A DNA stretch of 64,000 bases from assembly GCA_020137815.1 (NCBI GenBank), contig CM035360.1:4650001-4714000 (forward strand). Direction: 5' to 3'. This document shows, one piece after another, positions 113 to 3,100 of the stretch. Made by a program: the position numbers and the translations under genes. The notes beneath the pieces were generated by a model that saw nothing but the letters and a program-made list of their open reading frames with translations, had not been told where the DNA came from and ran no database searches. The DNA comes from Hormiphora californensis. Lineage: Eukaryota; Animalia; Ctenophora. Every line of letters starts with the position of its first letter. Within the stretch, counting starts at the first letter, position 1.

Positions 113-3100
113 GTTGAATCAAATAGTCATTCTGATAACTCTTGTGCAGCTGGAGGCCCCCTCTTGAAGCTACAGAAAGACACAGCGATGAGCATTCCAT
201 ACAGTTTTAGTGTTACTTGGGAGGTAATATTATAAAAATGAAAAAGTGTCCGGCTATGTTACTAATTGTTTTTTGTTCTTTTTATCCAGTCTATCCAGTC
301 GCATGTCCTTATGTGACTCCCTGCAGTAGTCCTCCATAACTCCTTGTAACCCCACCCCCCCCCCCCCATACCAGGCAAGCGACGTAGCATGGGCATCTCG
401 TTGGGATATCTACCTCAATTCGGGAAGCAACGCACAGATCCACTGGTTCTCAATAATTAACTCCCTAATCATTGTCCTCTTCCTATCTGGTCTCCTGGCC
501 ATGATCTTGGTTCGAGCTCTGAGAAGGGACATTGCCGCTTACAATCATGATGAAGAAATGGTGAGATGTCTGTTTTAGGTGTATCACGTGACACGTGTAC
601 GTCCCCCTCTATACTATCTCTTTTCTATTTCTTTTATTCTTCACTACATCATGCCCCTCTTTCTGTAGACTTCTGACCTGTCTTTATCTCTCTCCCCCAT
701 TATTACAACGCAACACCCTGATCTATACATGATTCATATCATCTACTTCCTTTCTGACACCCTATCTACAAGTACTGACACCCCTCCGTGACGTCAGCGC
801 TTCTAACACCCTTCTAACACCCTTCTAACACCTTTCTAACACCCACATGCCTCTCTTCGTGACCTTCGTTCTGCGTTTATCCCCAGCTGTGTTTTGACCA
901 CTTCTAACATCCACAGGATGATACGTATGAGGAGAGTGGGTGGAAGTTACTACATGGTGATGTACTTCGGGCACCTAACTTTACTACTTGGCTTGTGGCT
1001 CTCATTGGTAAGTTGAAACTCCCTGACAGAAACAGAGTGCACAAAAAGCTTTTTTCCATGATCGATCTGAGATTATGTTTGCTTTGTAAGGTTAATATTC
1101 TCGAACCATGTTTCAAAAGGGGGTCAAACAAATAATTACATACATAAGTCATCACCAATAACCATACTCAACAAATAAATATGTTCTCAACTCATATAAA
1201 GAAGTCAGTAAGTCTACTCATATAGACGACAGAGGTGGTTTAACGGCTGCTAGATGTGAGATGATCCGAGTCCAGTAAAGCTCACACTGTCGCCCCCTAA
1301 GGCACGTCCCAAACACCCTTCTCCACGTACTCTCAATATCATGTGCGTGGAAGTTCTGACAGGGTACCCCGTACTCCATGAGCTTGATACGACACACGTC
1401 CAGGATTTGAGCGTACCAAAACCGGGCGTAGACCTGGGATTGGAGGAAGGGGTATTAATTGGGGTTGTTAGTTGAGGTATTAGATTATAATTGGACCTAG
1501 GGGTTTTAGGTGCTAGTGGCCTGTAGCGGCAGGGTAAATATTGCAAACAGTGTTGCAAAATCAGTAATAAAATCATTGTATCTTACCTCTGGTACGTCTG
1601 CTAGCTTTGCGGAGATGGCAGGAGTAATACCAAGACACCAATGACCGATAATCTTGAGAATAGTGGCTACTGGGAGGAGTTTAGTTTTGTTGAAAACAGA
1701 TCCAGCAGTGATATGTTGGACACGTTTACAGGATCCTTTGCACACCGTACTGGTCAATCCTCGCTTCTGTAGTACCTTCTGAGGAGAGAAAATGGGGTTA
1801 GAAATTTAATAGCTGAGTGTTTTTCAATATATTGCATGATCTAAGTTTGTATTCAACGGAATACACACAAACACACAAACACACACACAAACACACAAAC
1901 ACACACACAAACACACAGTGTATAGCGGACTAACCTTGCAGAATTTACAGCGTAGAGAGGTAGATAGGAGGGAGTGTTTTAAAGCAAACAGAACGGCGCT
2001 CTTCTCATCCTTGGTGACAGTGGAGAAGATGTATTCCTCAAAGACACGTTTAGAGGGTCGGCGTCTGGGTAGAAGGGAGAACTGAAGAGGCATGGTGGTG
2101 GTTGTTGTGGGTTGTGGAATATTAGTGTGAGAAGTGTGGGAAGTTGCAGTTATATTGGGGGTAGCTGTGGGTTGGTCTGGCTAATTAAGGGGCGGATATA
2201 ATTGGGGGTGGGGGACTCATAATTGGGTGTAATTAATTGGAATCTCGTTACTGGAGAGGGGTGGTGTTATTGTGATTGGAAACCTGATTATGTCGTCACC
2301 GATAGTCCAGGTTTTACAATTGATCACGTGATCCAATTCACATCGTGACGTCACATTGTTACATTGTCACATTATTACGTCACATTGTTACGTCACAGTT
2401 GGGAACTACCGTCGTACCTTCAAAGCGGTACCTTGTGTGTCGAGAGAGAGAGACGGTTAAAAAAGATAACTACTTTTCCACCATGATACCTCTTGATACG
2501 TCTCATTACATGGAACGCCGTGTAAATTTCAGCTTCTTCTACTACGTGTTCTCTTACAATACAATATGCATCACTCTGTGTACAATATCTTACTCACACT
2601 CTTTTCTCGCATGGAGCATCCTACGCTGGTAGCCGAAAGTTGTTCGTTAGAAATGACTAAAGGGGACTATAAAAAGGATAGTTCAACATCGGGTCAACAT
2701 CACATGAATAATGAACAGTGAACACTCTGTAAAAACTACAACTTCACCACCCCATAAACACCCCTATACAAGTTCACCACACCAACACCCCTATTATACT
2801 AGTTCAACACCACACCAACACCCCTATTATACAAGTTCACCACCACACCAACACCCCTATTATACAAGTTCACCACCACACCAACACCCCTATTATACAA
2901 GTTCAACACCCCTATTATACAAGTTCAACACCCCCGATACATTTCAGGTAGTGGAGTTCAGCTAGGAGCTACATTCCTGGCGTGTATTGTCTTGAGTATG
3001 CTGGGTATGCTCTCACCAGCAAGCCGTGGAAATCTCATCGGCGCCGGAGTGTCACTCTTCTTTTTCTTCGGTAATTGGGGGAGTTAATTGGGAGAGGGGG

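Follow-up and report, generated by a model that had tools for sequence, protein, structure and literature searches.

In this study, we describe a small, three-exon gene from the comb jelly Hormiphora californensis whose product derives from a Merlin (IS1595/ISXO2-like) transposase and has lost the catalytic core. That the gene is a domesticated, non-catalytic Merlin derivative is well supported as regards both origin and domestication, and its function is what we infer from the parts that were kept: in the explanation that we think probable, about 105 aa of core were lost in frame from a Merlin-derived host gene, and the small basic product acts as a non-cutting DNA-binding regulator by way of a zinc ribbon and a predicted helix-turn-helix (HTH). 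Positions refer to the window, that is, the whole stretch of 64,000 nt that was analysed, and those of the main features are collected in Table 1.

Table 1. Features of the mini-gene, its host gene and the Merlin-like element in the window
Feature	Position	Strand	Description
Host TM9SF exon	917..1007	+	91 nt; upstream of the nesting intron
Host intron, TM9SF/EMP70 gene	1008..2947	+	1940 nt; GT-AG ends; encloses the whole mini-gene antisense
Exon 1	1935..2093	-	Codons 1-53; ATG at 2093; N-terminal helices; first CxxC knuckle of the zinc ribbon
First zinc-ribbon knuckle Cys (exon 1)	C49 1947-1949, C52 1938-1940	-
Intron 1	1779..1934	-	156 nt; GT-AG; phase 0; contains a (GT)n-type repeat; 2 SNP rows, 2 indel rows
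Exon 2	1587..1778	-	Codons 54-117; second Cys pair, GSxF-type motif, first predicted-HTH helices
Second zinc-ribbon Cys pair (exon 2)	C66 1740-1742, C70 1728-1730	-
Intron 2	1434..1586	-	153 nt; GT-AG; phase 0; 9 SNP rows, 3 indel rows
Exon 3	1218..1433	-	Codons 118-188 and stop; last predicted-HTH helix, putative deletion junction, third-acid block, C-terminal helices
Putative deletion junction, residues ~139-146	1347..1370	-	Inside exon 3, away from the introns; Merlin counterparts have a 102-108-aa RNase H-like core
[IV][ED]xTW block	1323..1337	-	Matches the third catalytic residue block of Merlin; E151 at 1332-1334
Non-autonomous DNA transposon	20159..22967	.	23-nt perfect GG-ended TIRs; 8-bp TSD; Merlin-like ends

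The initial annotation had proposed three GT-AG exons joining into a stop-free protein of 188 aa, and re-splicing of the minus strand confirms this: the exons add up to 567 nt, that is, 188 codons and a stop, and both introns have pyrimidine-rich acceptors. With exon 2 as query, HMMER found three matches among 1.84 billion representatives, namely two relatives (P0001 and P0003) and one low-complexity artefact, a Thr/Ser-rich frog protein (P0002) whose likeness is one of composition and which was rejected, and a profile search with proteins of 29-431 aa added a third (P0006), its 2451 candidates containing only three family clusters. The family relatives thus number eight sequences in these clusters, of 246 aa (P0001), 199 aa (P0003-5) and 207 aa (P0006-9), and each is a continuous protein; for P0001 and P0003-5, the alignment to the spliced product runs through both junctions to the C-terminal end (blastp 46%, E ~1e-60). 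As the relatives run uninterrupted across both junctions, the splice model is independently confirmed and the short build is common to the family. Identity to the window protein is 44-47% for P0001, P0003 and P0006, and 59-78% among those three; 63 of the 188 positions, including the four zinc-ribbon cysteines, are invariant in the four sequences. The contigs carrying P0001 and P0003-5 measure 1.3-3 kb and those carrying P0006-9 from 63 kb to 2.4 Mb, and the former records may be transcripts or intronless genes. No family relatives were found among viral and prokaryote contigs, and a word-based homolog search for longer proteins gave no match.

The antisense nesting claimed for the mini-gene, within an intron of a TM9SF-family gene, holds at the EMP70/TM9SF family level. 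All three host exon frames tested contain PF02990 (EMP70), and a diverged transcript-like contig of run X7 skips the nesting intron: the 139 letters that it has from 511 to 2947 are precisely the total expected from joining the host exons. This RNA-like run has no records on the mini-gene itself, and although it bears the same species label, its host-gene contig (window 420-4017) is only ~84% identical to the window, so that the run probably comes from a different or cryptic species and its empty result speaks neither for nor against expression. Since nesting of genes in introns is frequent in one ctenophore (2357 nested intronic genes, according to the available part of PMC8527503), we discount the nesting as a special feature, and the mini-gene probably lies in the TM9SF intron by coincidence. 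The window has what is likely another nested gene, with antisense exons at 10388-11183 (minus strand) between the exons of a plus-strand gene at about 9289-13285; one of its exons looks sushi/CCP-like by eye, and a 164-aa frame there has no Pfam match.

Repeats were also observed around the host gene. Tandem arrays of 33/22/11-nt units lie near both ends of the mini-gene region, at 2742-2961 and 800-843, and vary in length between samples. At 4205-4248, all three DNA runs show very high depth and many loose ends, marking the end or core of a high-copy repeat. The segment 4577-6154, in an intron or flank of the host gene, is built of nested, 100% complementary inverted repeats, with arms of 491 nt (4870-5360 and 5372-5862, around an 11-nt loop) and 299 nt (4577-4875 and 5856-6154), and represents either an assembly artefact or a foldback element.

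Judging from sequence comparison, purifying selection acts on the mini-gene, which is old. Over 1150-2190, the contigs of three DNA runs from two samples, with runs X5 and X6 stopping short of the gene ends, yielded 28 substitution rows and 7 indel rows. Twelve of the 15 coding substitutions are synonymous and the other three are conservative replacements (L43I, T45S and T27A, the last at an otherwise invariant site), giving a pN/pS of 0.08 (p 8e-6 to 8e-5 over transition weights 1-5). Variation at replacement sites is lower than in intron 2 (p 5e-4), and that at synonymous sites equals it (p 0.37). None of the 7 indel rows is coding: all lie within introns or before the ATG (p 0.008, counted as 5 clusters), and the frame-breaking insertions of run X6 at 2110/2113, just upstream of the ATG, fit a 5' UTR. 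Exon 1 carries 11 of the 15 coding SNPs (8 synonymous), and exons 2 and 3 carry two each, all synonymous, so that the selection signal in the latter two exons rests on 4 sites. The mirror frame on the plus strand shares third positions and is nearly as synonymous (11 of 15 SNPs); the strand is therefore fixed by homology and not by the SNPs. At 80% likeness there are one or two haplotype-like contigs per site, and depth in run X1 is like that of the flanks, which fits a single locus, contig depth being no measure of copy number.

For the origin of the family, reference transposases were collected by motif scans, which gave 13 viral loci (10 reading as IS1595-type frames) and 114 metagenome loci; among 116 motif matches in the metagenome set, the 14 with a long open frame upstream are eukaryote-type Merlins, a designation that comes from sequence type and tree and not from labels. 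PF12762 is matched by all three of these that were checked. Aligned by hhalign with the Merlin N-terminal region, the family profile reaches a probability of 97.9% (E 5.3e-13, 124 columns), and its residues up to ~138 correspond to the Merlin transposase N-terminus, with zinc ribbon and predicted HTH. A Merlin HMM gives the four representatives 29.5-63.9 bits, whereas 500 shuffles of each do not exceed 8.7, and in the reciprocal search the family HMM returns Merlin N-termini among 2929 segments (best E 1e-8). A tree over 133 columns was built from 29 rows, namely 4 of the family, 18 eukaryote-type and 7 bacterial ones, a near-duplicate and short or over-long fragments among 44 stretches having been left out. 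In it, the family forms one clade (99/98), sister to one Merlin (97/95) and inside the eukaryote-type Merlins, which separate from bacterial IS1595 at 100/100; the longest family branch (0.64) belongs to the window protein. The Merlin/IS1595 origin put forward at the outset is thus supported by profile match, HMM, reciprocal hits and tree.

Domain libraries do not recognise these proteins. Pfam has no relevant match for six window frames or for P0001 and P0003, leaving DDE_Tnp_IS1595 (PF12762) unmatched, and NCBIfam and PHROGs have none for P0001, P0003 and P0006. Two results serve as leads only: in the ESM Atlas, where top scores are 0.90, Zn_ribbon_IS1595 clusters appear at 0.86-0.89, and one of five weak plasmid tblastn matches (E 6) falls on an IS1595 transposase. 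The zinc-ribbon-type N-terminal cysteines are invariant in all 14 eukaryote-type Merlins, and Pfam Zn_ribbon_IS1595 missed all three that were tested. The available part of PMC8101967 states that most Merlins are without this domain, an absence that may reflect profile sensitivity.

The second element of our explanation, an internal in-frame deletion of the core, is well supported from sequence, if less firmly than the N-terminal homology. The 14 Merlins have a GG motif ahead of the first catalytic Asp and an HT motif ahead of the catalytic Glu, with 102-108 aa between the two motifs. Where these proteins carry that segment with the first two catalytic Asp, the family has only a few residues, and about 105 aa of DDE core are absent. 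Within the window protein, C131, the conserved Cys of the HTH helix, stands 15 aa from H146, the H of HAHDIESTW, which agrees with the distance of ~15 aa first noted between the N-terminal motifs and this sequence; the [IV][ED]xTW part of the motif is kept in the relatives, but its H is not. When aligned with a profile of 84 C-terminal pieces of Merlins, the final 53 aa of the four representatives lie colinearly and in one register on the Glu block. The tail of the window protein scores 9.8 bits in this HMM, a score reached by none of 2000 shuffles, and those of the relatives 3.4-4.2 bits, reached by 5-14 of 2000; profile against profile, the score is 25.4 (0 of 200 column shuffles). Alignments and C-terminal scores together thus support the claim that the segment bearing the first two catalytic acids was lost in frame. 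Conversion of the lost core into an intron was considered and rejected, the junction being inside exon 3. In established DDE chemistry, no DNA is cut without two of the three catalytic acids and their fold, and as the family is missing both, its proteins should be unable to cut DNA.

A structure prediction for P0003 from the family alone was poor (pLDDT 54). With Merlin/IS1595 N-terminal stretches added (46 rows), which means that the good model partly presumes Merlin homology, it reached pLDDT 83 and pTM 0.79, with 91 across the junction, and displays a small beta region around the four cysteines, three helices spaced as in an HTH and, at the C-terminus, two further helices; the model suggests that the N-terminal domain and the C-terminal helices form one compact unit. 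Fold searches of the PDB with the better model gave nothing above noise, neither by Foldseek (best E 0.42) nor by VIA (best Z 4.4, rmsd 3.3, 82 aligned), many of the lower rows being HTH proteins, and by sequence search the PDB contains no solved Merlin relative. The best viral fold match was S5VTD8 (E 7.5e-3). Members of the family are strongly basic (net charge +14 to +19, pI 9.5-9.9), with conserved basic patches adjoining the zinc ribbon and the HTH. The DNA binding envisaged in the initial annotation is therefore plausible by prediction, in view of the four invariant zinc-ribbon cysteines, the HTH-like helices and this charge, but is a prediction only. The start of the presumed recognition helix varies between members, with acidic residues there in three of the four. 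Four further invariant residues, C131, C142, C161 and H177, lie near or beyond the junction and may, speculatively, form a second metal site.

No convincing terminal inverted repeats (TIRs) surround the mini-gene, the best of eight inverted pairs in 560-3000 being imperfect and 12-28 nt long, and when the whole window was scanned for GG..CC ends flanked by an 8/9-bp target-site duplication (TSD), only 4961-5771 and 20159-22967 were returned, neither of them around the gene. The absence of TIR and TSD noted at the outset thus stands and, together with the conserved relatives and the low pN/pS, supports domestication. The GG-ended element at 20159-22967 with its 8-bp TSD, also noted at the outset, is real, and is young by its perfect TIR and TSD; it contains a long tandem array at about 20340-21330 and an inverted duplication near 22200-22430. 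Scanned in six frames, the window (1641 segments) revealed neither another Merlin transposase nor a remnant of one for this element. Elsewhere, a 194-aa frame at 44589-45173 (minus strand) resembles, by eye, the RNase H/C-terminal end of a non-LTR retrotransposon.

All together, these results allow us to propose that one ancient internal deletion occurred in a Merlin transposase and that domestication followed. The N-terminal domain and the C-terminal helices would fold together into one unit, as in the predicted model, and recognition of element ends would be expected of the part that was retained. The protein would be nuclear, and its binding sites would either derive from old Merlin ends or have been newly acquired; from there it would act on host transcription or chromatin. 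The same features might instead belong to a host-kept, KP-like repressor, occupying the TIRs of active Merlin elements or poisoning transposase multimers through its C-terminal helices. A predicted DNA-binding part kept while catalysis is lost corresponds to two features listed for P-element repressors in the accessible portion of PMC12393704; a young element with GG ends and an 8-bp TSD is at hand in the window; intact Merlin ORFs are reported from ctenophore genomes in the available part of PMC8101967; and the window protein has the longest branch of its family. However, TIRs differ among Merlin families and turn over, whereas the gene is old (44-78% identity among members) and under purifying selection, and a transposase matching the young element was not found in the window. 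Because an old, purifying-selected gene fits young, changing terminal repeats poorly, we prefer the host regulator and consider repression of active elements unlikely. The repressor or dominant-negative role against elements such as that at 20159-22967, suggested in the initial annotation, finds no support in these results, none of which ties that element to the protein.

Alternatively, the protein might have been domesticated but have given up specific DNA binding, and now mediate protein interactions as a module stabilised by zinc, in which the junction might carry a new metal site; the invariant C131, C142, C161 and H177 and the variable start of the recognition helix point this way, but the strong, conserved positive charge, with basic patches beside zinc ribbon and HTH, makes it improbable. 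A shade less probable still is that no internal deletion took place and that a truncated Merlin N-terminus captured an unrelated tail, whose likeness to [IV][ED]xTW would be due to chance. In its favour, the whole-protein profile alignment ends with the HTH and the tail scores only 3-10 bits, with an hhalign probability of 57%; against it, all four members lie colinearly in the same register on the third-acid block, at a score that no column shuffle reaches, and 37 aa follow the acid in the window protein, near the 49-72 aa of Merlins. As for a decayed or internally deleted non-autonomous transposon with a frame open by chance, Merlin remnants are common in ctenophore genomes according to the retrieved sections of PMC8101967, but the two spliceosomal introns, the pN/pS, the restriction of indels to non-coding positions, the intact relatives at 44-47% identity, the lack of TIR and TSD and the one or two haplotype-like contigs per site largely refute it.

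New DNA-binding proteins are known to arise by domestication of transposases, and the host regulator would add to them a lineage-specific candidate from one of the earliest-branching animal groups. The published Merlin domestications that we found are from protists and retain the catalytic domain; the mini-gene family is without exactly the domain by which surveys search, so that genes of this kind would be systematically missed. In the literature covered, mostly non-subscription, we found no published description of a core-less Merlin gene or of this family, and three family motifs had no match in 11 supplementary files of PMC8101967, of which the ctenophore appendix was perhaps incompletely covered; the mini-gene may be present as a nameless model in genome annotations. 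A further prediction is that, in Merlin/IS1595 transposases, the catalytic core forms an excisable insertion between an N-terminal DNA-binding part and C-terminal helices, the two packing against each other. More tentatively, we may be dealing with an undescribed, lineage-wide comb-jelly family of transcription factors or genome-defence proteins, in which the Merlin core was cut out in frame and the ends rejoined as a compact zinc-ribbon/HTH fold, possibly with a Cys/His metal site, still reading Merlin-derived ends, and which would be the first catalytically gutted Merlin domestication known in animals and a natural domain dissection of a transposase family for which sequence finds no solved PDB relative.

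Compared with Merlin transposases (PF12762), the family is homologous in the N-terminal zinc ribbon, the helical/HTH region and the third-acid block, but is without the 102-108 aa that include the first two catalytic Asp and without a PF12762 match; in contrast to Merlin elements, the mini-gene has no TIR or TSD and has two introns. In the case of the KP element repressor of Drosophila P elements, the tail is frameshifted. As in the mini-gene, an internal deletion has removed transposase activity and spared the DNA-binding domain, as far as the accessible portion of PMC12393704 describes it; KP is, however, young, mobile and multi-copy with intact ends, whereas the mini-gene is fixed, intron-bearing and old, with an in-frame native C-terminus, and repression by it is hypothetical. 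Merlin TIRs are GG-ended and 24-462 bp long in the available part of PMC8101967, which also reports Merlin ORFs in three ctenophores and putative protist domestications, all picked by their DDE domain. Putative domesticated Merlin/IS1595 genes of Stentor and Perkinsus (PMC8101967) and of Blepharisma (bioRxiv 10.1101/2021.12.14.471607) are, in the sections available, Merlin-derived, TIR-less, conserved ORFs like the mini-gene. These sections show the protist genes keeping DDE_Tnp_IS1595, often with the full triad (the Blepharisma preprint, in its available part, describes TIR-less IS1595 genes with complete triads), whereas the mini-gene family has deleted that domain.

Exapted DNA-binding-domain proteins are transposase-derived, with the binding part kept and catalysis gone, as in the mini-gene. 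Proteins of the THAP, CENP-B/Jerky and BED types belong here. Several exapted transposases keep only their DNA-binding domain and are presumed transcription factors, Merlin being unmentioned in the available part of that account (PMC8616336). Such proteins come from other donor superfamilies and lost catalysis by truncation or point loss, whereas in the mini-gene it would have been removed by an in-frame internal deletion, with both ends of the transposase rejoined.
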